Made by a program: the position numbers and the translations under genes | From: a virus | Length of the DNA: 64,000 nucleotides | IMG/VR virus record: IMGVR_UViG_3300013094_000027 | Span: 1 to 64,000 of that record | Strand: one strand, 5' to 3' | Shown: positions 2,888 through 29,793 of the stretch, one piece after another | Layout: the number at the start of each line of letters is the position of its first letter | Position numbering within the stretch: position 1 is the first letter of the stretch | The notes under the pieces: generated by a model | Seen by the model: the letters and a program-made list of their open reading frames with translations, nothing else | The model's database searches: none | What the model was told of the DNA's origin: nothing

Positions 2888-5800
2888 TTAGAAATATCCT
2901 GCAACATTTCCTGAATAACCCATATATTTTCTAAAATCCTCATCAAACAAAGAGATTATTTCAGCCATTGAACTTGCACCAGGTATAAATTTAATAGCTT
3001 CTCTTGTAGGATGTGCTGATTTAAGCATGGATTTATTTCCTGTTACAGAACCATATATTTCTTGAAATTCATTAGTCATTAAGTTCCTAAAGTTTTTCAA
3101 AAGTCCTATTGCTGGTATGGTATTATTAAATAACTGTTCAAATTCTCGTGGATCATAATAAAATGAAAACTCATTATAGAATTTTGCAAATGATTTATGA
3201 GCAAAATTAAGTCGTGCTCTTTCATTTTTATCTTGCACTTGTTTTGCAATAGATGCTGATAATAACATCAAACTCAATGTACCTGCTGTAATCATTGTTT
3301 CACGCATCATTGATTTAATAATTCCAACTGATTGATGAAAATACTCTTCTTTTGACATATGAAAATCTTGACCTCTTTTTGCAAAATCTGCTTTAATTTG
3401 ATCATATCTACGATAAGCAGCTTCTCTTATACCGGGATTTGTTATTTCAGAGCCTAATAAAGAACTTAATAAAAGTTGATGTTTCATAAATCCACCGATG
3501 CCTTCACCACTAAAGAAATTATTAAAAAATTCACGCCATCTACCTACAGAATAAGTATCTGTAGCAGATTCATATTTCCATTTACCTGTTCTTGATTCTA
3601 CCTGACCGGGTATCCAGTTACGAAAACTTGTAAAAGCTTTCATTACAGATAAAGTATGCATACCAGATCTATCTTCAGGATTCATGTTACCCAATACTTT
3701 ATAAGTAACTTGTAATGCTGTTCTACGCATTTGGGTGTATGGAGATTCTATTGCTGTAGGATTACCATCTTTGTCTGTTGGAATTTTATCTAAATCTATT
3801 TTATTTCCTTTAGAATCTTCCCAATAAGGATTATTGTCTTTATCTAATTTCATTGTTGCATATAATGAACTTTTTTTACTTTCTTCAGTAACCGCTTCTA
3901 AAAGATCTTTATCAGAAATAGTTTTATTTTCAGCAGAAAGTTTATGCAAAATTTCTTGTCGTATATTTACAATATTTCCTGAATCATCTAATTTATACAT
4001 TTGTAATATAGAACCACCAACATGATTTTCAACCAATTCATCTCCTTTTCTATGACCGATTAAAAGTATATCTGTTGGATTTGGTATTTTTTTTGTAGTT
4101 TGTGCTTCTTTAGATAATTCTTTTCCAAGATGACTTTCCATGCGAAAATCAAAATACTTTATGGCTGCTTTCATTTTTGAATCATTTGTAGCTAATTTCA
4201 TGTAAGTATTTTTGATCATTCTATCGTTGAAATACAAACCTGATTTACCTTGAAAACTAATGTTACCTTCACCACCAACAATGTTTGACAATATTGATTT
4301 TATTCTAAAGGCAAGACCAACAACAGTATTATACTGAATAGCAGAATTTATTAATTTTTGAGTTGACAATTTTCTATTTTCATCTAAATGCACTAATTTA
4401 TTTACAATAGGTATTTTAGATATAACTTTATTTATTTGAGGTGCTATATCTATTGAATTGTCAAAATCTTGTACTTTACCATACATTTGTAAATCTACAA
4501 GTTCTTTTAATAGAGCAGCATTAGTTTTATTAAATGCTTCTTGACTAGGCGCATCTCCCTTAGAAGGAACTAATACATTTTTATTTTCTTCAGTAATAAT
4601 AATTTTTTCTACATTATTTTCTATATTTTTTAATGCTTTATATTTTTCAAAAGATTCAATTGTTTGAGTATATACTTTTGTAATGTCTACATTTTGTGAC
4701 GAAGCGTCATCTGAAGCATGTAAAAAAGGCATTTTTAATTCACGCCATTCTTCATTTGTTAAAGGATTTACATCTTTTTTGTTATTTAATTCTTGATTGG
4801 AATTAGATAATTTTTCCCATACTCTATCTACAGCATTTATATTTTCTCCTTGCATTTTTGCTTCCATCATTTTTGTACTAACAGAAGGAAAAAATGTATA
4901 TATTTGATGATCTTCTATTAAACCTTCTTGCGCAAGAGATTTATTAAAAGCAATCATATTATTATATAAAGAAAGTAATTCTGGAGTTTTTAGTATTTCT
5001 TTATATTCTTCAGAATACCATTTCTCATTACCTATTAAATATTTATTACCATATGCGCCATTTCTTATAGCCTCTGGATTTTCAAAATTTTTACCAACAT
5101 CGTATTTGTTAACAAATAATTCTAACTCTTGATCCATTTCATCTTTTGTAATTTGATTTGAATCAACCATTTCTTTTAAAGATGTTTGTTTTTTATTTAA
5201 ATCATTTTCGTAACGAGTTCTATCAAAAACAGTATTATTTTCATACCAAGACTTCATTATGTCTGTTGGCATAGAAGCCATTTCTTTTTTGGCTTTAAAA
5301 AATTCTTTTGTAAAATTGTTTATAAGAAGATAATTTCCCTTATAATCTTTTCTTAAAAGTTTTTCTTTAAATACTTTAATAGGGTTTGTATATTTTTCTT
5401 TTATTTCTTTTGCATTTTGTATAAAAGGTTGTGATTCTTTTTCTTGATTTGCACGAGAAGTTTCTATTGCTTGAAAATATAATCTTGTAAATAATTGAGT
5501 AGTTCTCATTTGAGTTTGACTTTGTGTAGTAGCCCATCTTTGAGTAAAATCCAACTGTTGTTCAGGAGTAGTAATATTTCCTAAATTTGCAAGATTTGAT
5601 AATTTTTGAGTTTCTTTTATGGCAGCTTCTATTAAATATTTTTCTGCACGAGCAGCCCTACCAACGTATTCATCTAAAGTGCTTTTTCTATTCTTAATAA
5701 TATTTAATTCTTCTGCTGTATAAGAACTATCTTTTAATTGTTCTAAATATTGCTTATTTAAAGAATCTTTTTCAAAAGTTTGAATAGCTCTCATTCTTTC

Positions 5801-8332
5801 AATTAATCTTGAAAGATTTATATCTTTATCACCTTTATTTAATTTTTCTATTGATGCTGCTGCATTTTGTAATTCTGAATAAATATAATCTGTTAAACCA
5901 CTAAGATCTTTTCTAAAAGCAATCTTATAAGCAGCATTTTGTATTTTTTTTGCACGTATTTCAATAGCTGTTTTTTCACTATTAGACATTTTATTAAAAT
6001 TACGTACTTGTTGTTTATACAAATTATTTAATTTGTCAAGTGTTTGTTGTATTTGTTCATTATCACTTTGATAAAAATGCACAATATGTGGTCTTAAATA
6101 AGCATCTTCATCTTCAAGATTTTCAAAATTAAAAGAAGATATTTTAATATCTTTTGGTATAAATCTTGCAACACCATTTTCATCATCAACATGTTCTCCT
6201 TCCAATTTTAAAGGTACCATTAAGTCAACTCTCCTATCTTTAAGACCATAAGTTTTAGCTAAAATATCTGCTAATTTATTAGATTGTTCAGTAAAAGATT
6301 TTTTACGACCTTCATCCAAACCTTCTTTGGAAAGACTTGCTATAGATTTCCAATCATATTTATCATAAGAACCATCTTTATAAATAACAAGTAAGTCTAT
6401 TGTACCAGCTAAACCAAATCCTTTAGAAAAATCATTTTTCTTTTTTTCATCAAAATAATCTCTATCTGCAATTTTTGCTTCAGGAATTATTATAACATCT
6501 TCATTTTTATAATGTTCTATGATTTCATGTACAAAATTAGCTAATTTATAATAGGTTTCTTCAGGACTTATTCTTTCTAAAGGTTCTATTTGACCATTTT
6601 TTCTTATAGTACCATCAGGATTTAAATATGATCTTAATAAGTTTTCTATATCTTTGTGTATGTCTGTACCTGCTTGTGCAATATCTAAGTTTTTTTGTAC
6701 TAATTCAGGATTTTCTTTTGCTCTAAAAGGTTTATCTATAGTAGATGTTACTGAAGAAGCAAAATGTTTTTTTTCACCATTTACATCTTCCGAATAAGTA
6801 TGCCTTCTTTGACCAAAAAGTTTATCTTTAGGATCATCAATAATACTATCATCTAAATGTAGATTTTTTTGTTCTTTTAATATTTTATTTATAGAATCTT
6901 CAGGTGTTATAGGTACTGTATTTTTATATTTAAATCTTCCTTTGTTTTGAAATACGTCTGTAAATACTTGATGATATAAATATTGTGAAGGATCTTCTTC
7001 TATATCATTTGGTTTTAAATCTTCTATATTCTTATTATCAATAATTGAACGATCACCTTTTAATATTGATTCTGCAATTGAACCTGCTTTAGCTTCAAGA
7101 GAATTTCTGTTTGTAAAACTATCAAAGAATTCTTTTATTTTGTTTATAATTCTTTGTAAAAGAGATGCGTTTTTTTCATCTTTTTTTATTTGCCATTTAT
7201 CTACAATACATTTTGCTATTAACTGATCAACAGCTTCTTTACGAACATGTTGTTCATCAGAATATAAATCTCCATATTGATCTTTAATATTTTCATAACC
7301 AGACCACAAATGAATATTCTTCATTAATTCATTTAAAACAAAATGATTTTCTCCCATTAACATTGTTATAATATGCGCTGCTTCATGTGGAATAGTATCT
7401 AATTTTGCAGGATTATTTTTATTAAGATATATGATTTTATTTAAAACATCTGCAACACCAAAACTATCTAACCCAAATCTTTGTTTAAAATCATCAATAT
7501 CTTGTATTTTTATTCCAAAAGGTTCTAAAAACTTAATTATAGTGTTATTTAAATCTTTATCTACATTTTGAATTTGATCTGAAGTTAATTTATGATAAAT
7601 AGTATTAGTATCTCTTTTTTGATCTATTTTTAAATCATTATCCGAACCTTGATTAAATTGTTTTATGTTTAAAAATTGATCTTGAGAATCAGCATTTAAA
7701 GCATGTTTAAAATAATCTTCAGGTTTAAAATCACCATAATTTGATTCTAAAGCACGTAAAATATTTATTCCTTTTGAGTGGGTAAGAATTGCCTCATCTG
7801 TAGCAATATTTCTTAAACTCTGTACAGCATTTGTAAATCTGTTATAAAATTCATTAAAAGATTCTCCACTGGGCACTTGTATATCAGGATTTTTAACATA
7901 AAATTTTTCAGGAAATTCTTTAGTAGGTCTGCTTTGAAATTTACCTAAATTCCAAGGTTTTAATCCTTCTACTGTAACAACATTTGCACCATTATATTTT
8001 TTTAATATTTCTGCTGTTTCTTGTGCACGAACTGTTGGAGAACTATAAATTGTTCTTAATTGTTTTGCATCTTCTGTTTTTGCTGTTTCAGTAGTTTCTT
8101 TTATACCTTTTGGTGCAAGACCAATTGGATTATCACCTGAATTTTTATCTTGTATATCTTCTAATGTTTCTCCATGATGAATAACATTTAGTTTTTTTGA
8201 ATCAAGTAATTTATTTGCTTGATCTAAAGTAGGTGTTTTTTCTCCATTAAGATGCCATGCTGCAAGTGCATTTCCTTCACCTAAACTATTTTCAAGATCT
8301 AAATATTCTTTGTTTTTTACAGGACAACCCAT
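2888..8332 (-). CDS. Giant ejected/polyvalent protein: histidine-phosphatase-like + zincin HExxH + PD-(D/E)xK nuclease + helical C-terminal region
   Basis: Likely start is ATG at 8332 (TAATG coupling with vRNAP stop; MGCPVKN). Motifs IHHGET/YSSPTVRAQETA/PSGESF/LTHS; PHEAAH...E; GTDIH...E...AGTIDLL...YDWKS. Position downstream of vRNAP as in crAss-like phages. Confidence 0.8.
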   Translation of the reverse strand: MGCPVKNKEYLDLENSLGEGNALAAWHLNGEKTPTLDQANKLLDSKKLNVIHHGETLEDIQDKNSGDNPIGLAPKGIKETTETAKTEDAKQLRTIYSSPTVRAQETAEILKKYNGANVVTVEGLKPWNLGKFQSRPTKEFPEKFYVKNPDIQVPSGESFNEFYNRFTNAVQSLRNIATDEAILTHSKGINILRALESNYGDFKPEDYFKHALNADSQDQFLNIKQFNQGSDNDLKIDQKRDTNTIYHKLTSDQIQNVDKDLNNTIIKFLEPFGIKIQDIDDFKQRFGLDSFGVADVLNKIIYLNKNNPAKLDTIPHEAAHIITMLMGENHFVLNELMKNIHLWSGYENIKDQYGDLYSDEQHVRKEAVDQLIAKCIVDKWQIKKDEKNASLLQRIINKIKEFFDSFTNRNSLEAKAGSIAESILKGDRSIIDNKNIEDLKPNDIEEDPSQYLYHQVFTDVFQNKGRFKYKNTVPITPEDSINKILKEQKNLHLDDSIIDDPKDKLFGQRRHTYSEDVNGEKKHFASSVTSTIDKPFRAKENPELVQKNLDIAQAGTDIHKDIENLLRSYLNPDGTIRKNGQIEPLERISPEETYYKLANFVHEIIEHYKNEDVIIIPEAKIADRDYFDEKKKNDFSKGFGLAGTIDLLVIYKDGSYDKYDWKSIASLSKEGLDEGRKKSFTEQSNKLADILAKTYGLKDRRVDLMVPLKLEGEHVDDENGVARFIPKDIKISSFNFENLEDEDAYLRPHIVHFYQSDNEQIQQTLDKLNNLYKQQVRNFNKMSNSEKTAIEIRAKKIQNAAYKIAFRKDLSGLTDYIYSELQNAAASIEKLNKGDKDINLSRLIERMRAIQTFEKDSLNKQYLEQLKDSSYTAEELNIIKNRKSTLDEYVGRAARAEKYLIEAAIKETQKLSNLANLGNITTPEQQLDFTQRWATTQSQTQMRTTQLFTRLYFQAIETSRANQEKESQPFIQNAKEIKEKYTNPIKVFKEKLLRKDYKGNYLLINNFTKEFFKAKKEMASMPTDIMKSWYENNTVFDRTRYENDLNKKQTSLKEMVDSNQITKDEMDQELELFVNKYDVGKNFENPEAIRNGAYGNKYLIGNEKWYSEEYKEILKTPELLSLYNNMIAFNKSLAQEGLIEDHQIYTFFPSVSTKMMEAKMQGENINAVDRVWEKLSNSNQELNNKKDVNPLTNEEWRELKMPFLHASDDASSQNVDITKVYTQTIESFEKYKALKNIENNVEKIIITEENKNVLVPSKGDAPSQEAFNKTNAALLKELVDLQMYGKVQDFDNSIDIAPQINKVISKIPIVNKLVHLDENRKLSTQKLINSAIQYNTVVGLAFRIKSILSNIVGGEGNISFQGKSGLYFNDRMIKNTYMKLATNDSKMKAAIKYFDFRMESHLGKELSKEAQTTKKIPNPTDILLIGHRKGDELVENHVGGSILQMYKLDDSGNIVNIRQEILHKLSAENKTISDKDLLEAVTEESKKSSLYATMKLDKDNNPYWEDSKGNKIDLDKIPTDKDGNPTAIESPYTQMRRTALQVTYKVLGNMNPEDRSGMHTLSVMKAFTSFRNWIPGQVESRTGKWKYESATDTYSVGRWREFFNNFFSGEGIGGFMKHQLLLSSLLGSEITNPGIREAAYRRYDQIKADFAKRGQDFHMSKEEYFHQSVGIIKSMMRETMITAGTLSLMLLSASIAKQVQDKNERARLNFAHKSFAKFYNEFSFYYDPREFEQLFNNTIPAIGLLKNFRNLMTNEFQEIYGSVTGNKSMLKSAHPTREAIKFIPGASSMAEIISLFDEDFRKYMGYSGNVAGYF

Positions 8333-11300
8333 TATATACAAGTTTTAATTTTTTCTAAAATATTTTCTATTGGTTCATTTGTTTTTTGTAAAGCATTGTG
8401 TAATTCTATTGCTTTTTGTTTGAATTCTTCAAAAGATTTTGGATTTTGTTCGTTTTTATATTTTTCATCATAAATCTTTTTTAAATTATTATCATCTATT
8501 GTTGTTTTTGTAGCAGATATAGATTGTTTTTCCATAGGTTGCGAAGGTACATTAACTCTTTCAAAACTTGTCTGATAACTACCTATATGAACTGTAGAAC
8601 CGCCTAATACTTTTTGAAAATGTTCTGGTGTCCATTGTTCTTTTTGAGACCATTGTTTTATAAACTCTGGGTTAGTAACATCTTCTTTGGTTAATCGATG
8701 CACTCCTGTAATCCTGTATTGAGCAGGTCTGTTTTCAAAAGTTATTATATCCCCTACTTTACCTAATGGAAAACTCCTTGTAGTAGCTGTTCTTTTACCT
8801 TGTTCAGTAAGTTCTACAGTAGAAGTGTCTCTACCTATAAGATTTTCAGAAGCAGCCATTTTATAGGACATTGCGTGATTTTTCATTTTTTGACTTTGTT
8901 GCGAAGGTACAACATTTTCAGTAACTTTTGGAGTTATTTGTAATGCTTTTTCTTTATTTATTCTTTCTTTTAAAGAATCAATTATAGCTGTTATTCTAGG
9001 ATTATTTTCATCAAAATAACTATTTTTTTCTACTAAAGATTTAGTATTATCTTCAGGATATACTTCGTTAAACATTCCTCTTTCACCAAGAATATTTATT
9101 CTTTTATAATAAACGCTTGAAGTGCCAAGATCAGGAATTTTTTCATATAGTTTTAATTCAAAATTTTTATATGCTTCACCGGCATCTGTATTTTTGTTTT
9201 TTTGTTCTGTAGTAAGTTCTTTACGAAGATCATACTTACATATATAATCATTCTTTGTTATAGAATTTTCAGAATTAAATGCAACAACACTACCATCTCC
9301 AATAGGAGTATATTTTGATTTTTTAGTAAATTTTGGAACTAATGTTTGATCGTTATAGTTTAATTGATGAAATTGTTTATAATTTAATTCTATTTCTTTT
9401 TGAAATTCTTCAGGATCTTTTATTTTATTTTTCCATGTGTCTAATATTTTGCCGACCATTTCAGAATAAATTTCATGTGGTAAGATCTTTTGAATAGAAG
9501 ATCTTGTTCCTTGCATTCCATTTTGAATAATACTATAAATACCTAAATTTTTTACCCAATCTTTATATTTAGATTGTGGTAAAGCATCATGCAACATTAT
9601 TAAAGAATCTGTAAGATCATTTATTTCATAACTATCAGATGATGCTTTATATAAACGAATTCCTGAAGGCTTTGAAGGATCTTCATTAAATATATATTGT
9701 AACGATTTTAATACTTTTGCATTTGGATTAGACATTACTTTAGGATTGCTTTTCAATTCTTTTAAAATATTTGCAACTGAATTTTCACCAAAAAGCATTT
9801 TTTCATAATTTTCTGCCAAAGTAGTTCCGTTAGTATTATGTGTTTGCAAAATACGAGCAATACTAAAACTTAAAAATTTATTTATATATCTTTCTTTTTC
9901 GTCAGAAGTTGTATAAATATTATCTATTTTATCAAAAATTCTTTCTGTTAAAGCTATTGCATCAGAATTTGATGAAATAAAATAATTCTCTAAAACAGGT
10001 TGTAAAGACAATAAGTTTTTACGTAAAACTCCTAATTGAGTATTGTTAAATAAACAATCAATAGATTCTGGTTCTATGAATCCTTGTTCTTTTACTTTTT
10101 CATAATTTCTTTGTCTAAATCTATCTGAAGCAGATGTTTTAGGTTTTTGTGTATCTATGTTAATAAGATTGTTAAAATTAAATTCTTGTTGTGATTGCTT
10201 TTTATATTCTTCATAAGCAAACAACATATTTAATTGATCCCAATTTTTATCTTTTGAAGTGTTTGTCAAATTAGAAATTAAAGTTTCTTTTGAAATAGAT
10301 TTGTAATCATCTCTTGTAGAATTAATATCATCTAACATTGATTGAATAGTATTGTTTTTTGTATTAATACTTTCCCAAAGTTGAGATTTTAATTCTTTTA
10401 ATAGTTCTTCTTCTCTGTAAGAAGTGTTTTCTATTTCATTGCTTAAAGACACTTCTTCATTTGTATGTTTAATATATTCATCCCATGTTTTACCGTTATC
10501 ATAATATTGTGAAGCAGTTTTCCAAAAAATTTGATTTCTGTAAAAAGAATCTTCATTTACCTTATTTAATAATCTATTATTAATAGCAATGTTTTTAACA
10601 TAATCTACTAATATAGGTTGTGGGAAAAATAATGCTGCGTGATTTTCAGGAGAAACACCTTTATTTACTAAGTAAAGATATGGAGCAAATGTTTCATCAT
10701 TAATATTTAGTTTAGCCAAAGCAGGTTCTTTAGCACCGTCTACAGATGCTTGCACAGCATTATCAAGACTTACAGAAATCAATCTTCCTGTTACATCATA
10801 TTTAGAACCCAATTTGATTCTTCCGTTTTCATTAACATGTGGAAAAATTATATTTATATCTTTTTTTAATGATTCTTTGCTTTGTCCTGATATATATTTT
10901 TTCTTACTTGGTGCGTATAAAAAATGCAAATTTTCACTATCATACTTTCCTGTAAGATATACGTCAGATTGTTGACACATTGTATGCATTGTTACACCTC
11001 TTGCTCCAATACCTACCAATCGTTTTGCAGTAAGATATAAATGTCTTAAATATTGAGAAGTTTTTAACTGTTGTATCGCTGTTTTATTATTTTCTTCGTT
11101 TACAATACCTTTCTTTTTTTCTACAAAATCTGCCATTTCTGTTAAAACACCCATAGAAGTAGGAGACATCATACTAGCATAGTTTTCAGGTGCTAATAAT
11201 AATGTTCTCATATTTTTTAACAATCTGTTTTGTAAACCATCCATTGTGTTTTCATCAGAAACATATTCTATTCGTGGTGCATTTTTTGGAAAAAGTTCAT

Positions 11301-14300
11301 TGTATTTTTGTAATCCTTCTTTAATATCTTTAAAAAACTTTAAAAGTTTTTCATTACCTTTTGCATAGCTTTCTACAGAACCCGGTAAATCAATTCCTTG
11401 TTCTGCAAAATTTTCAAAACCTTTATCTGTCCAAGAAGATTTATTTAAATTATCTAAGTTTTTTGTATCCCATTTTTCTAATTCTGCTTCAGGATCAGAA
11501 TAATTTTTTTCTTCAAGATGTTTAATCATTAAATTTCTAAATTCTTCAGAATCATAGTTTTTTTCTTTGATTTTAAATTTAGACATTATTTGATTTAATT
11601 TATCCACATCAAAGTCAGAACCTGAAGTAACAACTACTCCCGGAGGAATTGTTGTAACATCACCTGTTTTAGAATCAAAGAAAGCACTATATTCTTGAGG
11701 AACAATAGAACTCATTGAAGCAGTGGGTATACGAAAACCCAATGCCTCAAAAAATTCTTTTGGTAAATTTTCATGCACATCACGCCACAAATTATCTTCT
11801 CCTTTAACAAGACCAAGTTGTTCAGGAGTAAATTCTTTATAAGGCCATACTGTAACACATTTTGGAGATTTTACCTGACCATTTTCAATATAAGGAACTA
11901 AACTTTTATTAGCGATGATTCTTAAACTCTTTTTTTCTTGAGGAGTTAGTCTTTTATTGTCTTCTTTTTTATATTCAACATAATCTTTTTTAGATTCATC
12001 CCAATATGCCATTCTTGTAGATCCTTTGCGTTCTGTACCTAAAGAAGATATTTGAACAGCAGGAACACCATATAATTCTCGATTAACAAGTTTTTTATTA
12101 ATAATAGACCAAACCATGTTTTCGATTCTTTCTCTAGAAGGAAGGGCATCTAATTTAGTACCTATTACATAATTTCCTGTTTGTGGATCTCTTGTTGCAG
12201 CCAAAGAATCTATTTGATTTTGAGAAATTCCCCAATCATTTGCTTTATCTGCAAGTGTTTTTATAAATGTGTTTGCATTATTTTTAGTAGAATAATATTC
12301 TTCACCATTTTGATCTGTATGTACTTCTAAACTTAAAGTATCACAAACATCTTTTTTAGCAAGATCATACATTTTATTTAAAGTATCAATATAATCTTTT
12401 ACTACAGGTTTATATTTTTCATCTGTATTTGACATTATTATTTTTAATACTTGACTACCTACAACATGCCTTTTTTCAACAGGAACTTCTGTTTGTTTAC
12501 CATAAAATTGTGGATACAAATCTTGTGCTACCGGCACTTGATTGTTGTATTCTCCATCTTCATTATAAAATGGAAATAATGAACCGTCTTGATTTATTTG
12601 AATTCCTATTTTCTGAGCACTTTCAAAACCAAAAATATCTGATTTTGCTTTTTGATGCGCTAAATAAACATTCTCCATTGAAGTACCTTCAACATCAATC
12701 CATGACAAAGGTCTTACTGACATTTTTAATGCTACTGTATGAGTAATACCTGTTTTTTTAGCATATCCAAAATACTGAGGTTTTTCAGAACCTTTTACAG
12801 CATCTATATCTTTATAATTTTCTAGATCTTCTAAAGATTGTTTATATAATTCAGGTTTTGTTTTTTGATAATCTAAATAACCTGGATGATCTTTTGGTAA
12901 TTCACTTCTTTTTACAATTTCATATGCACGCTCATACTTAAATAAATCCCAATCTTTAGGATCCATGTCTGAACGTAAAATGCGATTTCTCCAATAAAAA
13001 TCATGCATTATATATCCTTGACCATCAGCACCATCTATTCCTAACCAGTTTTTTATTTGACCTGTTGGTTTACCTTCTTTATCTAATATTAGATTTTTAA
13101 AAGAATAAGTACCATCATTATTTTTTGTAAAATTTGCACCTAAACTTTTTTCTAGATTAGATGTATCTTTTTGTGTTTTACTAAGAATGTTAAATATGTT
13201 TGTATATATTTCTTTGTAGCCTTCTTGATAAAATTTTGGTTCAGCATAACAATGCCATCTTACAAATTGATTTTCAGTGTCTTTTCTACCATCTAATCTT
13301 GGAAAATGTTGATCTAAAAAGTTTAAAGATTCTTTATCTAAAGACCAATGTTGTTTTGGTGCTTGTGGCATTGCACCCCTTTTTGCAAAATCTTTATATA
13401 AAGCAGGGTGACCATAAATTAATTTATTTTGTTCTTGTCTTATAAATTCATAATTCAAAGTAATAAACTTTACTACTTTTTCCATTTGATCTTTGCTTAA
13501 TTTTTTAGGATCAACATGATTATAAAACAATTCTGAAAAAATTCTATTTTCTATATAATCTGTAGAATAGGAATTTCCTTTTTTTGTAAACACACCTTCA
13601 TCAAGTAAATAATTAAAATAATCACTTACTGTTTTATTTATGTGTTTTTGTATTTGAGTGTCAAGTTGTTTTTGATTTTTTTCAAGCCAAAATTTTTTAA
13701 GATTTGGATAATCATTTATGACTTCAGCTCTTTGTTTATCTGTTGCATTTTCAAGATAAGTATTTTTTGAGTCTTTATTTAAACCCAATACTTTTTCTTT
13801 AAAAGATGCTTTTAATTCAGGACTTAATATTGTATTAAAATAACCAAAATCAAGTACTCCTTTTTTATAATCTTTTATATTTGAAGAATTTAATATTTCT
13901 TGAAAAGCAGTATCCATTTCATCATTTAAATATTTGATGAATTGCATTCTTTCTAAACCAGAATCTATATTATCAAAAGATATTATTGGATTTGAAACAC
14001 TCAAAGCCATCTCTCTTGATTTATCTGAATTTATACCAATATAAAATACTTTTTCTTGATTTTTTCCTGATCCTAATATATATGCAATTTCTTGACCAAT
14101 ACGATCTGTAAAAGATAATGAATCAGTACCTTTACCAAAAATACTATCACTAACACTCATTCCATTTACAAGAACATATTTAAATACTTTTTGTGTTCTG
14201 TTTCCATTCGCATCAAAATAATTACCACCATTACGTAAAAACTCTGAATTTTTTACATAAGGATTATTATTTAAATGTGGAAATAATTCAAATAGTTCTT

Positions 14301-15726
14301 GTTTTGTTTTAACATTATTTATTGAATCAAATATTTTAGAAGCGGTAGATTGTTCTATAATAGAATATGCAAGTTCTCCTTCAGATGTTAAAAAAGATGC
14401 TGTTTGTTCACCAGTATTTATTTTTTTATAAACATTTAACAAATCATTTATTCTGCTTAAAACAGTATTTTTTTCAAATAAATCAGAAAAACTTTTTATT
14501 TTATTTTCTTTAAAAAGTTGTGATATTGCTTGATAAGATTCATTTATTGCTTTTTCATAAGGAATTAAATTTTCTGCAGGAACACCAAAATCAATACCAA
14601 TGTATTTTAATTTAGTTAAAGAATCTTGTAATGTATTGTTGCCTTTATTATCTATGAAATGATTATATTCTTTATTTTTGTTTACAACTAATTTGCCGTT
14701 GTTATTTTTAAAAAATAATTCTCCTTCATCATTCGGATCAATTTTGCTTTTAACATTATTTTCCCAAATAGATCGTATATCAACATTATTTTCTCTTAAA
14801 ACAGGGTCTACCATATGCAGACCATCTTCATTAGCTATTGATTTAGTAACGTTTAATTTGTTGGTGGAATAACTTACTTCAAAAGCAGTTTTTAAACTCA
14901 ATTCGTTTTCATTTGTAACAATATTATCTACTTTTAATCTTTTTTTAAGTTCTGCAATCCACTCGTATCCATATTTGTATTTATTATTTATTAGATATTT
15001 ATTATCTAATTCATCAAACATGTCTTTAATATTTGTTTTTCCTGAAAGTGTTTGCAATAAAACTGCTTGCACTTTAGCAAAATCTACTACAGAAGTTAAT
15101 CCATAATTTGAACCTGTTTTTCTTTCTAAAAGCCCTTCTGAATTATATCTCATTTCAGGCAAAGTAGATAGTAAAAATTTAACATTATTTTTTAAAAATG
15201 TTTTTGGATCTGTAGATATAGGATCTTTAAGATAGTTTTCTTTTTGTGCGCTATCGGCTTCTCTTTTATTAAAAGATTCTACCATATTTTCTGGAGATTC
15301 AAAATCTGCACGCAAACCTATTTTTCTAAAAAAAGAAGTTATTCCATTTAATATTTGTTGTTTTTGATCAATAATATTATAATCTTGCCGTAAGCCTATA
15401 TATTTTTTTTCTAAAAGATTTAAAAGTTTTTCATGTTGTGCTTTATCTCTTAGATTTGTTATGTCATACGCTTTCATCAAAGTACTTAAACCACCAGGTT
15501 TAAATATTATTTTGTCTGTAAATTCTTTATATGCTTTATTTAAATAAAGCTCTTGATTATCTATAGATTTAAAAAGATCATCTATACTTTTACCATCTTT
15601 TTCAAGATGATCGTATATAAGAGACACAATTCCTTCTACCACTTCTTTTTTAACAAGTGGCGAAACTCTGGATAATTTGGTACTTAATGATTTTTCAATT
15701 CCGGGATTACAATTATCAAATAACAT
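8332..15726 (-). CDS. Virion RNA polymerase (crAss-like), with C-terminal ASCH-like domain
   Basis: 2464 aa; catalytic GSDFDVDK (DFDVD at 11616-11602) preceded by GFRIPT; GKRTATTR ASCH signature near the C-terminus. Confidence 0.9.
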   Translation of the reverse strand: MLFDNCNPGIEKSLSTKLSRVSPLVKKEVVEGIVSLIYDHLEKDGKSIDDLFKSIDNQELYLNKAYKEFTDKIIFKPGGLSTLMKAYDITNLRDKAQHEKLLNLLEKKYIGLRQDYNIIDQKQQILNGITSFFRKIGLRADFESPENMVESFNKREADSAQKENYLKDPISTDPKTFLKNNVKFLLSTLPEMRYNSEGLLERKTGSNYGLTSVVDFAKVQAVLLQTLSGKTNIKDMFDELDNKYLINNKYKYGYEWIAELKKRLKVDNIVTNENELSLKTAFEVSYSTNKLNVTKSIANEDGLHMVDPVLRENNVDIRSIWENNVKSKIDPNDEGELFFKNNNGKLVVNKNKEYNHFIDNKGNNTLQDSLTKLKYIGIDFGVPAENLIPYEKAINESYQAISQLFKENKIKSFSDLFEKNTVLSRINDLLNVYKKINTGEQTASFLTSEGELAYSIIEQSTASKIFDSINNVKTKQELFELFPHLNNNPYVKNSEFLRNGGNYFDANGNRTQKVFKYVLVNGMSVSDSIFGKGTDSLSFTDRIGQEIAYILGSGKNQEKVFYIGINSDKSREMALSVSNPIISFDNIDSGLERMQFIKYLNDEMDTAFQEILNSSNIKDYKKGVLDFGYFNTILSPELKASFKEKVLGLNKDSKNTYLENATDKQRAEVINDYPNLKKFWLEKNQKQLDTQIQKHINKTVSDYFNYLLDEGVFTKKGNSYSTDYIENRIFSELFYNHVDPKKLSKDQMEKVVKFITLNYEFIRQEQNKLIYGHPALYKDFAKRGAMPQAPKQHWSLDKESLNFLDQHFPRLDGRKDTENQFVRWHCYAEPKFYQEGYKEIYTNIFNILSKTQKDTSNLEKSLGANFTKNNDGTYSFKNLILDKEGKPTGQIKNWLGIDGADGQGYIMHDFYWRNRILRSDMDPKDWDLFKYERAYEIVKRSELPKDHPGYLDYQKTKPELYKQSLEDLENYKDIDAVKGSEKPQYFGYAKKTGITHTVALKMSVRPLSWIDVEGTSMENVYLAHQKAKSDIFGFESAQKIGIQINQDGSLFPFYNEDGEYNNQVPVAQDLYPQFYGKQTEVPVEKRHVVGSQVLKIIMSNTDEKYKPVVKDYIDTLNKMYDLAKKDVCDTLSLEVHTDQNGEEYYSTKNNANTFIKTLADKANDWGISQNQIDSLAATRDPQTGNYVIGTKLDALPSRERIENMVWSIINKKLVNRELYGVPAVQISSLGTERKGSTRMAYWDESKKDYVEYKKEDNKRLTPQEKKSLRIIANKSLVPYIENGQVKSPKCVTVWPYKEFTPEQLGLVKGEDNLWRDVHENLPKEFFEALGFRIPTASMSSIVPQEYSAFFDSKTGDVTTIPPGVVVTSGSDFDVDKLNQIMSKFKIKEKNYDSEEFRNLMIKHLEEKNYSDPEAELEKWDTKNLDNLNKSSWTDKGFENFAEQGIDLPGSVESYAKGNEKLLKFFKDIKEGLQKYNELFPKNAPRIEYVSDENTMDGLQNRLLKNMRTLLLAPENYASMMSPTSMGVLTEMADFVEKKKGIVNEENNKTAIQQLKTSQYLRHLYLTAKRLVGIGARGVTMHTMCQQSDVYLTGKYDSENLHFLYAPSKKKYISGQSKESLKKDINIIFPHVNENGRIKLGSKYDVTGRLISVSLDNAVQASVDGAKEPALAKLNINDETFAPYLYLVNKGVSPENHAALFFPQPILVDYVKNIAINNRLLNKVNEDSFYRNQIFWKTASQYYDNGKTWDEYIKHTNEEVSLSNEIENTSYREEELLKELKSQLWESINTKNNTIQSMLDDINSTRDDYKSISKETLISNLTNTSKDKNWDQLNMLFAYEEYKKQSQQEFNFNNLINIDTQKPKTSASDRFRQRNYEKVKEQGFIEPESIDCLFNNTQLGVLRKNLLSLQPVLENYFISSNSDAIALTERIFDKIDNIYTTSDEKERYINKFLSFSIARILQTHNTNGTTLAENYEKMLFGENSVANILKELKSNPKVMSNPNAKVLKSLQYIFNEDPSKPSGIRLYKASSDSYEINDLTDSLIMLHDALPQSKYKDWVKNLGIYSIIQNGMQGTRSSIQKILPHEIYSEMVGKILDTWKNKIKDPEEFQKEIELNYKQFHQLNYNDQTLVPKFTKKSKYTPIGDGSVVAFNSENSITKNDYICKYDLRKELTTEQKNKNTDAGEAYKNFELKLYEKIPDLGTSSVYYKRINILGERGMFNEVYPEDNTKSLVEKNSYFDENNPRITAIIDSLKERINKEKALQITPKVTENVVPSQQSQKMKNHAMSYKMAASENLIGRDTSTVELTEQGKRTATTRSFPLGKVGDIITFENRPAQYRITGVHRLTKEDVTNPEFIKQWSQKEQWTPEHFQKVLGGSTVHIGSYQTSFERVNVPSQPMEKQSISATKTTIDDNNLKKIYDEKYKNEQNPKSFEEFKQKAIELHNALQKTNEPIENILEKIKTCI
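8538..8911. repeat. 14-bp direct repeat GTTGCGAAGGTACA flanking the ASCH cassette
   Basis: Exact copies at 8538-8551 and 8898-8911, 360 bp apart (in frame). Confidence 0.9.
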
Positions 15727-15736
15727 GTTTGTTTAT

Positions 15737-18700
15737 TTATATTTCAATAATATTATTATCACAAGACTGGTGTTTATTTAATTCATCAATTTCTTTTTCT
15801 GATAAATTTTCTTTTGGAAAATCTGAAGATTCTTGTAATGATTCTATTGCACTTCCATTATCAGTAGCAATTACAGGTTCATCGACAGGATGAACTTCAC
15901 TTTGCGAAGATACAATATTATTTGGAATATTTATATTTTCTTCAGGTTTTTTTTCTTCTACTGTTTCTTGTTTAGCAACTTCTGAAGTTATTACATTAAA
16001 CTTTCCGTTTTTGTTTTCTAAAAGTGCTTTTTTAGACATTTCACCAATGTCTCCTGTTTCTTGAATTTTATATTCAAAATTATCTTTTTCTTCATTATAA
16101 CTTATTATTTCAGCATTTTGCAAACCTTTAGGTTTTTGTATAGTAAATTTAGTACCTACTAATTTTTCATTTTGATCCCAATCTATTTCATTAGAAGGTT
16201 TTGTTACAGATACTGTTTCTGAAGGTTTAGATTCAGCTTGTTTTGTTTTAGTTTCAGGTTTTGCTTTAACTTTTGTTTTAGGTGGTTGTTGAGTTGCTTG
16301 TTTAGTTTCTCTTTTTATTTCTTGTGGAGTTGGTTTATAACCACCTTCATTGTAATCATATGTCAAATTTACTTGTTTTAAAACAGGATGCAAAGAATTT
16401 GATTCATAATTATTTTTTCCATTTGCTTCTGGCTTTAAATTTTCAATTAAATCTGTATATAATACAGGTACTCCATTATTATCTTTTTTTACAGAAATGT
16501 AATGCAAATAATTATCATAAACATCTCCACCTTCAGAAACATTTTCTAAGTTTTGTTTTAATTGATAATCATAAAAATTATTTTTTTCATTTTTAGGACT
16601 ACTTGTTTCTTCTACATGTAGATCAATATATGGATCATTTGAACTTAGGAATTTATCGTTTACTTGATGAAACATTCCTTCTAATAAAGAGTCTTTGTTT
16701 TTATCTATTTCAGAAGGCTCAAAAGGCATTGACATAAAATCTAATTTACCATCTTTACCAAAAGATCGGTATAATTTTCCATTTATAACCCAAATTCTAT
16801 TTTTACCATATTTTCCTTCAACAAAATCTTTTTCAGAAGGTGCACCCCAAAATGTTACTGCATTTAAATATTTTTCAATTTTATTTAAATCATTAATTAT
16901 TTCTTTAGCTCTTTCTTCACCATATAAAGATGTTAATCTTTCTTTTTTTGCATCACTCGACAAATATTCTTTATACTTTGCATAATATTTTAATGCATTT
17001 AAAATATTTGTTTTTTCTTCTTCAGAAAAAGCTCTGTTATTAACAGGAAATTTTAAACCATCTTCTCTTACTAATACTAATCTGCCTGGTTTGACATTTT
17101 TAGTATCGTTATCTTTTTTATTTGCAATTTTTAATTTTATAGGAAGACCATTAGGAGCAACAGGATTTCCCCAATTACCATCTTTTATTAAAGAATTTGT
17201 AATAGATAATTTAGTTCTTTTGTTTTCAGTATTTTTTTCTGATCTGTTTGGTAACCCATCAGTTTTTCCTTTTATAGGAATAGAAACTAATCCTGATTTT
17301 GCGTCTTCTTTTATTTTTTCTCTTTGTGCTCTAAATCTTTTTAATTCATCATAAGCTTGTTGAAGTTGTTGATCTAAATATTGTCCTTTACTATCTTTTT
17401 GAAAAACAAACATTTGCTTTAACAATCGCCATGCTTCTGACTTTAAAAAAGATTCTTTATTAAATTCATTATCTAAAGGTGATTCTAATAAATCATCATT
17501 ACCATGTAAAGATCTATATATAATATTTTCACTTGTTGGATTTTCTATTACATTACCATTTATATCAACAGGTTTGTTTTCTTCATTTACATAAATTACT
17601 TTAATATCATCATGATATGCCTGTTCATTACGAACATCTTTTAACCAAGGAAATTTTTCTAATAATTCTTGATTTTGTTCTGTATCTTTAGTTACTACAA
17701 ATAATTTTATTTTATTATTTGTTGTATCTACATCAGCATTAAATTTGTATGCTTCGGCATTTTTTTCACGCTCATTTAATTGTTGATCATTATCATATCT
17801 GGTTACAGTATACTCTTTATCTCCTATAAGATATACTTTAGATTCTTTAAAAGGACTCGATAGTATTTCTTCATTTTTAGCAAGTGCTCTTAAAATATTG
17901 TAATGATTTTTTAAATCTTCAGGAGTATATGATTGTTTATCTAAAATTGCAAGTCGATCATTTTCTAGAAGAAGTTCTTTTGTTTTATTTCTTTTAATTC
18001 TGAATCTGACAATATTTCCTTGATCATCACGAAGTTCTAAATGTTCAGGATGATAATTTCTACCAACAACAATACTTAATTGTTTTTGATTTGCATTAAA
18101 CACAGGTCTTACTTCATATTTATCTGAACTATAATCAAAAACGTTATCTAAAAATCCTCTATCTTCTTCAGAAGATTGTGGAGTTTGTTCTGTTACAAAT
18201 TCTTTATTTTCATTATTATGTGCTGTTTTTTCAGTATCCCAAGAAATATTGTTTTTTATTTCTTGCAATTCTTCTTTAGGTAAAGTTGAAAAAACGTCAT
18301 TTAATTTTTTAAGAAAATCAATTCTATCTTTTATATCTGAAATTTCACGCAATTTTTGGTGTTCTTCTAAAAGACGTTGTTGTTTTTCTTGTAATTGTTG
18401 TTTTTCTTTTTGAGTTTGTTCTAATTCTTTTTGATATTTTCCAGATTCTAATAATACTTTTTGTACAAACAATCTTGCTGCTTGTGCTTGAACATCAAAC
18501 TCATCTGGTTCAATATTTACAAAAGAATCTCTATTAGAATCTTGTTTTGCACGATATTGTTCAGAAAGCATATTTGTTGCAAATTTGCGTTCTTCGGCAT
18601 TACCGTTATACATTAGATCAACTAAAAAATTCTTTAATGATTTTTCATCTGTAGCTGCTTTTACAACTCGTTCATAAAGATCTTTAATATCATTAACTTT

Positions 18701-21700
18701 ACCCAAATATTTTCTATTATCATCTATCATTTTTTGCAGATGATCAATATTCATATTAGCTAAATGAATTTGATAGTCAGTATCTTCTATGTATTGTTCT
18801 ATTCTTTCTTGAACTTGTGGTCTTGAAATAAGAGATGATTTTACATCTTCAAGATGTTTTTCTAAAGCATTATATAATGTTTCTTCACCATTTCTTTCAA
18901 AAGCATCTCCTGTAGTATTTAATTCATCTAATGCTTTTAAATAAAGTTCTTTAGAAGAATGTAAATTCTTTTGTAAGTCTTTTAAAGATTGTAAATCTTG
19001 TTTTTCTTGTTCGTGTGTTTTTTCTAATTCTAAAAGATGATTTTGTAAATTTTCTATATGTGTATTTATTTCTTTTGCTTGTTCTTTAATAACAGCAAGA
19101 TATTTTTTCTTAAATCCTTTTTCTGGATATTTTTGTTGACTATAAAGATGTTGTTCGTATTCTTTTGTTATTTGTTCATGTTTTTTTAACAAAGAATCTA
19201 TTTCATCTTTCATAGATTTAGTTCTAGATTCTAATTCTTGCAAAAGAGATTCTTTTTGAGATCTTCTTTGAGAAATTTCTTCTAGTTCTTTTTCATTTTG
19301 AATAATGCGTGATTCAAAAAGATTTTTTTGTATTTGAAAATCTTCTTCTAATTTACGTTGTCTTTCAATTGAAGCTATGTGTTCAATTTCAGATAAAGAT
19401 CTGTTTTTTGAAGAATACAAGACATCTCTTTCATTAAAGATTTTTCTTTTTTCTTCATTAGTTGTTGGATCTTTATAAACAACATAAAGATTTTTTTTAT
19501 CGTCAGCTAATTGTACTTTAGCATCTACATTTTCATATGTTTTTTCAGCATCATTCCATATTCTATATCTTATGTTTTGATTGCGATAATTTAAAAATAC
19601 TTTTTGATTTGTATTTAAATCTTTGTAATTTACCCAATTTCTTTTTATAGATTCTTCAATAAATTTATGTGCATCTATAGGATATGCTTGATCATTATTA
19701 ATTTGAACCATTAACATATCTTTGCCATTTTGTTTAAAAATACCAACAATTTTTATTTTATCATTAGTATTTATATTTACAGCTTCTCCTTTATATGATA
19801 ATCCTTTTTCTATTTCGTTTGCATCACCTACAAAATAATCTCCTTCAGTAATTGTTCTATTAGTTGTAGTACCATCTTTTAATGGTACATCAGATATAAT
19901 AATTGACTTTGGATTTTTTGGATCATAAGTGTGTATGATTATTTCATTAGGTTTATAATTTTTTTCAAATTCTTCATTTGTTATAGAAATCTTTGAATTT
20001 GTTTTTACATTTGGATCATTACTAATTTCTTTTAAAATAATATTTCCTTTATCGTCAACACCAGATACTTCAAATATTTTACCATCTTTAGAATATCTTG
20101 TTCCTAATAATCCTTTTTGTTTAGCATTATTTTCTTTTGTTATATTTTGTTTGTCTTCTTCGGCTTGTTTTGTTTGTTCAACATGTTCTTTAAAGGCATT
20201 TTTCCAAATTTTTGAATACTCCTCCCAATTACCTTGTGAATCAGTTATAATATTTGCTAATTTCAATTGACCTTTAGATTCAACATCTAATTTATAATAA
20301 TCTAAATACTTTGATATAGCACTTTCTTTTTCTGAAGGAGATAATACTCTTCCTGATTCTTTTAATTGTGCATCTACTGTTTGTGAAAAGGGTTCTTTTA
20401 AAAGTTTAGAATATTTTTCATCTAACGCTTGTATAGTAATATCTTTTTTACTAGCATCTGTTATAGCTAACGTATTATTATATTCTTCTTTGTATTTTGA
20501 TAAATGAGTTAAATATTCATTATGTGCGTCTATTAATTTATCAATCTGTGCTTTTTTTACAGAATTAGTTTCTGCTGCAGATTCTGCTTTTAATGTTTCT
20601 ATAGAACCTTTAATAGCATCTTCTTGAGTAAAGTTAAACATTGTTGAAAAAGAAAGCTGTTTAAAAGCATCCATACCACGAATACCTTTATCAGATCCTT
20701 TACCATTAAATAAGATTGTTTGTCTTTCAACACCCCTTTGTGCAATATCTTTATTCCAAACTACAGAATCTATAGCATGTTGAAATGCAAGATAATTTCC
20801 CATTTCTGTAGCCCTTTCTTCAGTACCTTCTTTATATTTAAAAGGATTGTGTGGATTTGGAAATTTTCTATAAACTTCTTTGTAAATAGAATTTATGTCT
20901 TTTGCACGTTGTTGAAATTCATTTATATGTTCTTGAAAAGAAACTGTTAAATCTTCATTTCCTTCATATGGAATATTTGGATGAAATTTTTCAAATAATT
21001 CTTTTGCACTAAGATTTTGTGTAAAATCTCTTAGATGATCTAAATATACATCTGCATATCCATTTTTTATTGCCGGTATAATAAAGCTTCTTAATGAATC
21101 ATCATGTAGATCATTAAATAGTTTGTTATTTTTAAATGCTGCAGCTACTTTTAAAAAAGAATCATAATGAGATTGTTCAGCAAGTTGTGCTAAATGATCT
21201 CTTATTGAAGAAGTAGGGTCTTTATAAAATTCATTAAATTTTTGTATAAATTCTGCAGCATTATTTTTATTTTCTTCTGTACGATTTTTCCATTGTTCTC
21301 TGTTTGTTATGTAATCTCTATTTTTAAAACCCTCACGAATACCTTCACCAACAACACCCATTGCAATAGCTCCTGTTAAAAAAGAAGATATAAATGTTTT
21401 TGCATTGTCTGGTGTAAACTGATTATTTATACTTTGTTTTAAAGAATCGGCAAAAGATAATTTGTCATTAGAAATTCCATACTTAGATTCATAAAATGCT
21501 TTTGCTGCATCATCTATTGTTTTAGTAGTTTCAACTGTTAATGCAAAACCTGCGCCATGAGAAATTTTACTAGGTATTGCATCTACTAAAGATCTCCAAG
21601 TAAAATATTTATCTTTTAAAAATAATTTTTCACCTGTTTGTTCAGCAATTTTTTCAGAATTAATACCAATCATTGATAAAAATTTTCCTTCACCTTGTTG

Positions 21701-25900: not shown

Positions 25901-25983
25901 AAAGCATAATTTAAAAACGAATAATCTAATGGTGTGACGCTAGGTGAAACTTGATCTATTTGCCCCGCTTGAAACCCTGCCAT
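22969..25983 (-). CDS. Cargo/ejection protein
   Basis: 1004 aa helical protein, TAATG-coupled to next giant gene; synteny. Confidence 0.7.
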   Translation of the reverse strand: MAGFQAGQIDQVSPSVTPLDYSFLNYALSTKESQYERGLSQVKSIYSSVLNSPLTNADNQKTREEYIADAQSGMKELSKADLSLPQNINKAGQLFAPFYQDSDIMADMYTTKGVSNNAAQINQWKTSSDKDEYAKYNPIQEEYNNQTILQLQNAKRGDGSLQKIRPRNIVPWQDKMEYLRKAVDDSGYEIEYDYATDEHGNPTPYIKKIKNGAETIPNWEIWAKSALGDKFEEQDRMVAQVGLDRYRNHIKQQNPNIADKDVDSEIAKDIIPSYTDMIQNNMKTYESNLKTYDESINELKNQAVDKNGNPRKHTPQEQQVLSQYTLAKNNIKQLQEKLKQDNSEIYNRNRDAFIERLTNNPLQYFEDLQKNKDVANFAKGITALSSVTLENNNVWSAMLTDKREREIASAKIKEEHFGNIIKGMDAGVLDENGKFISTSTNPTPIVGKDTTDVLETSDPLANYQLQMNTLKGVAVDNVLSPTGVAKALTSRNIIPMTDLPNICTSVKKLADTPFEKLSNPDKENITKLQQKLKENNVPVGNTLPELIHGINIFTQNEAKRKDLTSVQKTNIESELTSALKAETALMQYNAKDKMLKNNTKTELATNPAFKDSMVYRNVNNPDDILHADTGQKMEKDKNGNIIFQGKTYEPSAKKIDDVVSDVDFVDGYGRHQFLSRREIVDAIKNNALQVDKSHFYSEGEGPTTHTPGTLQINNKEYVINDDVAEKLQKYQKQYNENYKDFEQKLSKSVLSKMPEYADNASSRYGTVQSYIKTDQPKTTEEKKTNRFVLNASQELALPGNQKTVYDSDKKPVDPETQKAIQEALASGNYTQSASYHNIGFNGKDLWEVKLDLADKKADLDPELTWGNVKRSDLYGKSFFIEVNPSTTSRLLRSYPKDVVSRQLFSDLYNGKNIPLSPTLSSHGFDLTMIPDQADPNNIIVSGSVSTRNRNTGSFDQNPIELIFPLIGDKAKTPQEIYDYLTQEGVNHIKNNNENLRQYNQKFSN

Positions 25984-26004
25984 AATTTACAATTTAATTT
26001 ATAA

Positions 26005-26037
26005 TAAAATATACAAAAACTTATTAGGTTTACCTAA
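26005..26037 (-). promoter_or_regulatory. Putative late-class promoter for giant-protein operon
   Basis: TTAG (26037-26034), 20 nt, TATATTTTA (26013-26005); -33 lies within ATTAGGT-TT-ACCTAAT inverted repeat. Confidence 0.55.
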
Positions 26038-26056
26038 TTAAACTAACTTGGTTTAT

Positions 26057-27964: not shown

Positions 27965-27983
27965 AATATTATTTTAAAATTTA

Positions 27984-28015
27984 TTTGTAAATATCATAAA
28001 AAATTTGTACCTTTG
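27984..28015 (+). promoter_or_regulatory. Bacteroidota-type promoter oriented antisense to the lysozyme gene
   Basis: TTTG (27984-27987), 20 nt, TACCTTTG (28008-28015), intergenic. Confidence 0.65.
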
Positions 28016-28020
28016 CTCGC

Positions 28021-28066
28021 ACAAACAATCTCTTCAATAGAGCTTACAAAGCTACAAACAATCTCT
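28021..28066. repeat. 13-bp direct repeat ACAAACAATCTCT
   Basis: Copies at 28021-28033 and 28054-28066. Confidence 0.8.
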
Positions 28067-28526: not shown

Positions 28527-28538
28527 ATAGTTTTAGTT

Positions 28539-29789: not shown

Positions 29790-29793
29790 ATTA

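Follow-up and report, generated by a model that had tools for sequence, protein, structure and literature searches.

The 64,000-nt stretch of DNA analysed here (the window) comprises positions 1-64,000 of IMG/VR record IMGVR_UViG_3300013094_000027, a crAss-like phage, and window coordinates refer to it. The window is AT-rich (GC 26-33%), and its minus-strand stretch from 2888 to 22969 is filled by three consecutive open-reading frames (ORFs), designated A, B and C, whose giant products carry cysteine at the ends that face one another along the series (Table 1). The only Cys in A lies eighth from its C-terminus, B has one Cys near each end and six further internal ones (826, 1128, 1290, 1584, 1891 and 2163), and C, whose ATG overlaps the B stop codon by one base, starts with MGCP and has its second and last Cys at residue 375. 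No Cys is found at the N-terminus of A or at the C-terminus of C, the two outer ends of the series. An original prediction had described this arrangement and had proposed that the C-terminus of each protein is bonded to the N-terminus of the next; its inventory of cysteines was reproduced in full, down to the codon positions. The facing terminal Cys recur in relatives, are lost where the corresponding genes are fused, and probably mark a chain of disulfide-linked cargo proteins in the particle.

Table 1 Features of proteins A, B and C in the window, and ORFs inserted between B- and C-type genes in related IMG/VR loci
Feature	Locus	Position	Strand	Description
Gene A	window	15737..22969	-	2410 aa, first chain member
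A Cys2403 codon	window	15761..15763	-	only Cys in A; 8th from C-end; tail ...KHQSCDNNIIEI
Gene B	window	8332..15726	-	2464 aa, virion RNA polymerase, DFDxD two-barrel type of crAss-like phages
B Cys6 codon	window	15709..15711	-	head MLFDNC..., facing A tail
B DFDVD catalytic motif	window	11602..11616	-	residues 1371-1375
B Cys2463 codon	window	8338..8340	-	penultimate residue; tail ...ILEKIKTCI (longer: ...ENILEKIKTCI), facing C head
Gene C	window	2888..8332	-	1814 aa read from ATG at 8332; last chain member
C Cys3 codon	window	8324..8326	-	head MGCPVKNKEY..., facing B tail
His_Phos_1 (histidine phosphatase) domain of C	window	7754..8182	-	residues 51-193, E=5e-20; PHROG 12933
Inserted B-C ORF	L024			190 aa; Cys 3, 189
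Inserted B-C ORF	L068			204 aa; Cys 3, 203
Inserted B-C ORF	L077			169 aa; Cys 4, 167
Inserted B-C ORF	L047			~105 aa; MANC...KKCS
Larger inserted piece	L045			583 aa; Cys 4, 581
Larger inserted piece	L049			506 aa; Cys 5, 506

Altogether, A, B and C hold 11 Cys in 6688 residues. By our own arithmetic, the chance of finding Cys in all four terminal segments (8, 6, 8 and 6 residues) is ~2e-8 at this content and ~2e-5 at a typical Cys content of 1%, and the pattern is not a product of chance because it is conserved in relatives.

The identity of B was established through its family. In addition to the DFDVD motif, whose three Asp (D1371, D1373 and D1375) never vary in alignments A1 and A2, B matches the crAss001 'putative RNA polymerase' gp50 by both tblastn and blastp (blastp E 1.8e-16), and a profile of the B family (alignment A2) matches 6vr4_A (PDB 6VR4, the phi14:2 gp66 crystal structure) at E=3.6e-71; single-sequence phmmer of B against the PDB gave no match. 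On the strength of the motif, the gp50 match and the 6VR4 profile match, these sequences identify B as a crass-type virion RNA polymerase, the label that the original prediction had given it. C is homologous to crAss001 gp49, and its histidine phosphatase domain sits directly behind the Cys-bearing head. By position and size, A corresponds to crAss001 gp47 and phi14:2 g067. One stretch of it, residues 1726-2200, aligns with the N-terminal half of ~4000-aa relatives that are B-like in their C-terminal half; no PHROGs or Pfam family was found for A or B. The crAss001 and phi14:2 counterparts of A, B and C are virion proteins (PMC10172136; 10.1101/2020.03.07.982082; annotation). In crAss001, gp47, gp49 and gp50 are packaged as head cargo that is unresolved in the published map and has been argued to partly unfold in order to pass constrictions narrower than 50 Å (PMC10172136). 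The phi14:2 polymerase gp66 is translocated into the host, and recombinant gp66 is active alone, as a monomer, in dithiothreitol (10.1101/2020.03.07.982082). From this homology and from its gene context, B is most likely packaged in the virion and translocated into the host as well.

Conservation of the terminal Cys in orthologues, whose absence the original prediction had named as one finding that would count against it, was observed in the homologues examined. All 120 database homologues of B carry a Cys within their last 1-7 residues, with only 1-4 Cys each in 2000-4300 aa, and this conservation persists at roughly 20% sequence identity; the tail Cys forms a nearly invariant column in alignment A1 and an invariant one in A2, though the surrounding tails are unalignable. 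The closest relatives of B (P0002-P0004) also share Cys6. B alone retrieved no related viral loci, and alignment A1 was used as the query instead; the resulting 80 IMG/VR loci represent 73 non-redundant polymerase genes. Among the complete B-type C-termini from these loci, the last 7 residues include a Cys in 69/70 and the last 14 in 70/70, and the next large ORF has its first Cys at position 3-6 in 66/67 cases. The one exception (L058) has an unrelated, Cys-rich gene inserted, and the true C homologue behind it starts with MAC (Cys3), while in L062, which stands outside this tally, the C homologue conforms when a GTG start is used (MACS). Homologues of A have a Cys 1-8 residues from the C-terminus in 4/4 cases, and those of C have one at position 2-5 in 22/22, none of the 22 having a Cys near the C-terminus.

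Controls from the same loci lack this pattern. Terminal Cys was found in 0/72 upstream same-strand ORFs, which are also Cys-poor (0.06%, compared with 0.05% for B-type proteins), and the outer ends of the series are similarly bare, with an N-terminal Cys in 0/53 first members and a C-terminal Cys in 1/56 last members. In relatives the paired Cys lie very close to the ends, with a mean of 1.4 residues after the tail Cys (maximum 6) and a mean of 2.6 residues before the head Cys, including Met (maximum 5). The internal depletion of Cys is relaxed in some lineages while the terminal Cys are kept: window B has 8 Cys in all, its closest relatives P0002-P0004 have 2-3, and the gut-type protein of L075 has 19. 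One internal position, B Cys1290 (window 11857-11859), corresponds to a Cys ~81 residues before DFDxD that recurs in many B homologues (in P0033, 2893 versus 2974) but that phi14:2 gp66 lacks; this Cys is apparently a feature of the polymerase core in its own right, unrelated to the termini.

Further evidence that tail and head Cys belong together comes from the fusion and fission of these genes. Polymerase genes of ~3800-5300 aa are A-B fusions, and they have no N-terminal Cys; the protein upstream of such a fusion has a tail Cys in 0/40 cases. Where A and B are split, B has a Cys at position 3-6, and the sole Cys of the upstream protein lies within about 6 residues of its end in 12/13 loci, including the window, phi14:2 and crAss001. 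The exception is L075, which has a crAss001-like layout with the A gene elsewhere. The difference in upstream tail Cys between split (12/13) and fused (0/40) loci gives a Fisher p of 5e-11. Splitting has occurred at two different positions, with DFDxD either ~1300-1700 or ~2100-2550 residues from the start of B, and on a tree of the polymerase core the fused or split state changes at least 8 times, with 7/7 phylogenetically independent contrasts concordant with the head Cys (sign test p=0.016). The A/B split of the window and its Cys pair appear to be lineage-specific, because the local support that places window B inside a fused-form clade is strong; the tree being unrooted, the direction of this change is presumed. 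Two loci, L019 and L040, show apparent A-B splits without a Cys pair, and in both of them overlapping frames continue the homology (L019:11511-11551; L040:9900-10260), so that these are most likely frameshifts inside fused genes, programmed or due to faulty assembly. For L019 there is a nearly identical locus, L022, in which the gene is fused.

Loss of the Cys upon fusion is also seen at the second junction. In CrAssphage LMMB, which represents Carjivirus here (p-crAssphage NC_024711 lying outside the phage collection), and in crAss002, blastp identifies a polymerase fused to a C-type protein, and these B-C fusions of 4070 and 4245 aa have no Cys at their own C-terminus. Both phages keep the A/B pair: the upstream protein ends in ...SC[MS], and the LMMB fusion starts with MSC. 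The annotated start of the crAss002 fusion, gp33 (L086:13088-13190), leaves residue 35 as its first Cys; starting instead from the internal Met33 gives MSCTPS, similar to MSCGNI in LMMB, and this Met is preceded by a similar AT-rich leader, suggesting that the gp33 start was probably annotated 32 codons too early. Because both junctions have the Cys in phages with separate genes and lack them in phages with fused ones, the pairing of the C-terminus of one protein with the N-terminus of the next, which is the core of the original prediction, is strongly supported; conservation, the bare outer ends and neighbouring cargo genes, Cys at both ends of inserted members, and the same signature in phage A4 (the last two described below) point the same way. 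The prediction as a whole, which also called for ordered ejection and for release in the reducing cytoplasm, is supported in part.

Inserted members provide an additional view of the same rule. A gap between B and C frequently contains a small ORF whose only two Cys lie at its two ends, and larger inserted pieces occur as well (Table 1). ORFs resembling GIY-YIG homing endonucleases, a motif read by eye, lie in the B-C gaps of L047 (7300-8300) and L048 (15200-15800), and the one in L047 adjoins the ~105-aa protein that has a Cys at either end; the fission of genes may be connected with the insertion of mobile elements. In L009 (17268-25367) and L010 (17661-26639), a Cys-ending polymerase is followed by a 583/883-aa protein with Cys3/4 plus a Cys ~65 residues from its end, a CxxC protein and a ~1500-aa MSC protein, the last of which, in L009 (1485 aa), itself ends in ...ILKCHI. 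The order of the chain may differ from the order of the genes in these two loci.

The same pattern was found in cultured phages. In phi14:2, the sole Cys of g067 (1797 aa) is its last residue, g066 (2180 aa) has only Cys3 and Cys2179, and g065 (1421 aa) has only Cys3. In crAss001, gp47 has its sole Cys third from the end, gp50 has Cys5 and a Cys ninth from the end, and gp49 has only Cys5. DAC15 gp61, gp63 and gp62 repeat this arrangement, and in Flavobacterium phage FpV4 the fused gp32 has a sole, penultimate Cys that is followed by Cys3 of gp33. In both crAss001 and DAC15 the A-type gene (gp47 and gp61, respectively) lies on the strand opposite the polymerase gene and still encodes the tail Cys; the rule therefore belongs to the proteins and not to the gene junctions.

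This last result bears directly on whether the Cys codons could instead be a nucleotide or translational signal at the junction, with ribosome hopping or re-initiation fusing or coupling the proteins as they are translated. A spacing of 13-50 nt between the two Cys codons, around a stop/start overlap, is indeed seen in most loci, and the A/B spacing in the window is ~50 nt. Spacing in the T4 gene 60 bypass is likewise ~50 nt. The two codons are identical in 50/66 cases, which is about what the TGT bias would give (~50 by our own arithmetic), with both TGT and TGC occurring; the spacings fall in all three frames, six of them are 0.5-0.9 kb, and homing-endonuclease or other genes can separate the partners. 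With no codon match beyond expectation, with all frames used and with opposite-strand partners that keep their Cys, bypassing of the T4 gene 60 type was rejected, and we give a junction signal of any such kind almost no weight. Three further readings of the termini were also discarded. A split intein or trans-splicing has no room for intein halves of tens to ~100 aa, since the Cys lie 0-7 residues from the C-terminus and 2-5 from the N-terminus; a bacterial lipoprotein would be expected to have its lipobox Cys at ~15-25, whereas the head Cys lies at 3-6 with no signal peptide before it; and the Cys positions do not fit a CaaX-like reading.

The reading that we favour, and consider distinctly the more probable one, is that in the particle two disulfides between proteins connect the A, B and C cargo head to tail. 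The bonds would be A Cys2403-B Cys6 and B Cys2463-C Cys3, giving a linear A-S-S-B-S-S-C chain of ~6700 residues that would be topologically equivalent to the single fusion proteins of relatives. With the Cys so near the ends, only a tiny side stub would be left at each junction, and the depletion of Cys elsewhere would prevent other cross-links. Such a chain would secure 1:1:1 co-packaging, would let the partly unfolded proteins move through the portal and tail channel as a single thread, and would come apart upon reduction of the bonds in the host cytoplasm. Short stubs and Cys depletion fit a partly unfolded chain moving through a narrow channel, and the activity of gp66 alone in dithiothreitol fits release by cytoplasmic reduction. 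The ORFs upstream of A (window 22969-34071) are Cys-poor (1004 aa with 1 Cys, and 635 and 1425 aa with none), and these cargo-like ORFs are without terminal Cys; the chain would therefore stop short of them. A 153-aa lysozyme-like ORF in the same region (28065-28526) has 7 Cys.

A structural precedent for such a bond exists in another phage. The cryo-electron microscopy structure of cyanopodophage A4 revealed a disulfide between gp27 Cys1715 and gp26 Cys5 in the pre-ejectosome (PNAS 2025, PMC12002296), where a cleft in gp26 receives the C-terminal helix of gp27 in a 'mortise-and-tenon' fashion and the disulfide stabilises a pentameric ring (PMC12002296). In the genome of Anabaena phage A-4L, the sole Cys of gp27 (1717 aa) is third from its C-terminus and the sole Cys of gp26 (1114 aa) is at position 5. 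This precedent also raises a serious alternative for function, namely that the same disulfides lock a folded, stoichiometric cargo complex in the head, as in A4, and serve packaging and stability rather than threading or ordered ejection. Besides the A4 ring itself, the B tail (...ENILEKIKTCI) and the tails of many relatives (...EIGKILKSIC) resemble amphipathic helices and tend to face CPNxN heads, which suggests docking. A mere lock, however, could use surface Cys anywhere, whereas here they are always near the ends, always run from a C-terminus to an N-terminus, and can be replaced by a peptide bond, which is what a linear thread needs. We therefore regard a lock without threading as unlikely, though not negligible, and the two roles are compatible with each other. 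Hydrophobic, helix-like tails go with CPNxN-type heads in 8/9 cases (in the window, tail ...ILEKIKTCI and head MGCPVKNKEY, in the region 8324-8380), and this head type occurs at both A/B and B/C junctions. Matched tail and head motifs could be cognate docking peptides; the match is confounded by shared ancestry and was not used as evidence.

Alternatively, the terminal Cys might each bind a third partner, for example a portal, capsid or tail protein through one of its Cys, or a metal ion might be shared among several termini. Proteins of the crAss001 tail and portal vertex do carry disulfide-forming Cys, with bonds in the tail hubs, the ring proteins and the gp57 dimer (PMC10172136), and in crassviruses tail-to-head pairing is itself deduced rather than observed. 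A third partner would hardly explain why tail and head Cys come and go together at each junction while the outer ends have none, or why extra chain members have Cys at both ends, and A4 shows direct tail-to-head pairing. As for a metal site, the surroundings of the terminal Cys offer neither His nor a second Cys: within 3 residues of the tail Cys, Lys is enriched 2.3-fold and His is absent, a composition that fits a reactive thiol and not a metal site. We consider a third partner or a shared metal ion improbable.

The case for the disulfide chain draws on observations, namely a sequence signature that is conserved and tracks gene fusion and fission, together with the structural precedent in another phage; from these we infer the bond chemistry in crassviruses, the timing of bond formation, the threading and the release by reduction. 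Several points weigh against it. Oxidation would have to take place even though particles are assembled in the reducing cytoplasm and the gut habitat of crassviruses is anoxic. Neither a thiol oxidase nor a thioredoxin or glutaredoxin turned up in the 92-kb record, which is 76% complete; since the Erv1 control of this search matched 0/14 control genomes, the negative carries no weight. The crAss001 cargo is not resolved in the map, and the depletion of Cys is not absolute, given the six internal Cys of window B and the many in some gut lineages (L075: 19). The polymerase tree is a FastTree reconstruction of very divergent sequences, some on long branches, and because it is unrooted the direction of change has to be deduced. 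Finally, phmmer searches (E<=1) with A4 gp26-gp29 against A, B, C and the crAss001 and phi14:2 cargo gave no match, and by analogy with the A4 bond, which locks a folded pre-ejectosome ring, threading would not be required.

A broader form of the proposal is that a 'cysteine clasp' is a general rule in crass-like phages and, convergently, in podophages such as A4, by which any break in the gene for the giant cargo polyprotein is mended in the protein with a tail and a head Cys, the order of the injected thread can be read from sequence, and reduction in the cytoplasm of the host is the switch that frees the active RNA polymerase. Such a rule would also cover breaks that accompany homing-endonuclease insertion. 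We put this generalisation forward tentatively, as having slightly less than an even chance of holding. Beyond the single bond of A4, neither a multi-member chain around the crass virion RNA polymerase nor its strict coupling to fusion and fission was found in the literature. With the window comes a very divergent lineage, one where the A/B split is apparently lineage-specific and B is unusually rich in internal Cys.

Crassviruses are the most abundant human gut viruses. Their cargo, ~0.7 MDa of protein to be packed and injected with the infection-starting polymerase among it, is invisible in the crAss001 structure. If true, a conserved covalent chain would explain the stoichiometry of packaging, the fixed-order exit of giant proteins through a narrow channel, and the interchangeability of fused and split gene layouts. 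It also gives a sequence rule for annotating cargo chains and for correcting start codons in metagenomic phage genomes, as for L062 and probably crAss002 gp33. Downstream of the C-type gene, a separate family has fixed Cys at positions 5, 10 and 18 (M..xC....C.......C, e.g. MNVLCQATPCPV), in loci that include L014:23173-25364, L016:20831-23633, L021:22257-23921, L055:18075-21071, L060:19615-21318 and L063:19099-20730; this may be the metal- or disulfide-anchored N-terminus of a tail or fibre protein.

Full-text literature searches gave no description of a Cys-linked cargo chain in crassviruses. Neither the crAss001 nor the phi14:2 paper mentions terminal Cys or an inter-protein link (PMC10172136; 10.1101/2020.03.07.982082): the crAss001 atlas is silent on the Cys of gp47, gp49 and gp50 (PMC10172136), and the words 'cysteine' and 'disulfide' are absent from the gp66 preprint (10.1101/2020.03.07.982082). 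The RNA polymerase blocks of the cultured crassviruses, phi14:2 g067-g066-g065 (gp66 being PDB 6VR4), crAss001 gp47-gp50-gp49 and DAC15 gp61-gp63-gp62, nevertheless resemble that of the window in having three giant virion proteins with the terminal-Cys signature, B being homologous to gp66/gp50 and C to gp49. Unlike them, the window phage is very divergent (~23% identity in B) and has six extra internal Cys in B. Fused 'polyprotein' forms of the crass RNA polymerase block were noted by Drobysheva et al., citing Yutin et al. 2018, and the gp66 preprint described three proteins fused in some phages and proposed their cleavage (10.1101/2020.03.07.982082). Such polyproteins, A-B fusions of ~3800-5300 aa and B-C fusions of ~4100-4250 aa, are the counterparts of the split genes in the window. 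In the literature the fusions are proposed to be cleaved into components, while the present data suggest the reverse, with separate proteins re-joined via Cys.

Suppression of Cys in ejected proteins has also been described outside the crassviruses. In the Schitoviridae (N4 gp50, DEV gp71-gp73), complete Cys suppression in the ejection operon has been attributed to passage through the periplasm (PMC11445570). As in the window, these N4-like phages have a giant virion RNA polymerase with ejection proteins as its partners, all strongly depleted of Cys, but their proteins are essentially Cys-free, whereas the crass-like proteins keep exactly the terminal Cys; those of the window, low in Cys with the terminal ones retained, are not Cys-free in the Schitoviridae sense. 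The closest parallel is A4, which shares with the window consecutive proteins, ejected in A4 and most likely so in the window, whose near-sole Cys lie close to the facing ends. The A4 disulfide was seen in the particle, whereas those of the window are predicted from sequence, and the A4 gp27-gp26 pair is, as judged from these comparisons, an analogue and not a family member of the window proteins. Its authors described a stabilising contact in one phage and no general rule of fusion and fission (PMC12002296). A4, a member of the Saffermanviridae with a cyanobacterial host, has one such junction and no RNA polymerase, whereas the crass chain would have more members, arranged around the RNA polymerase.

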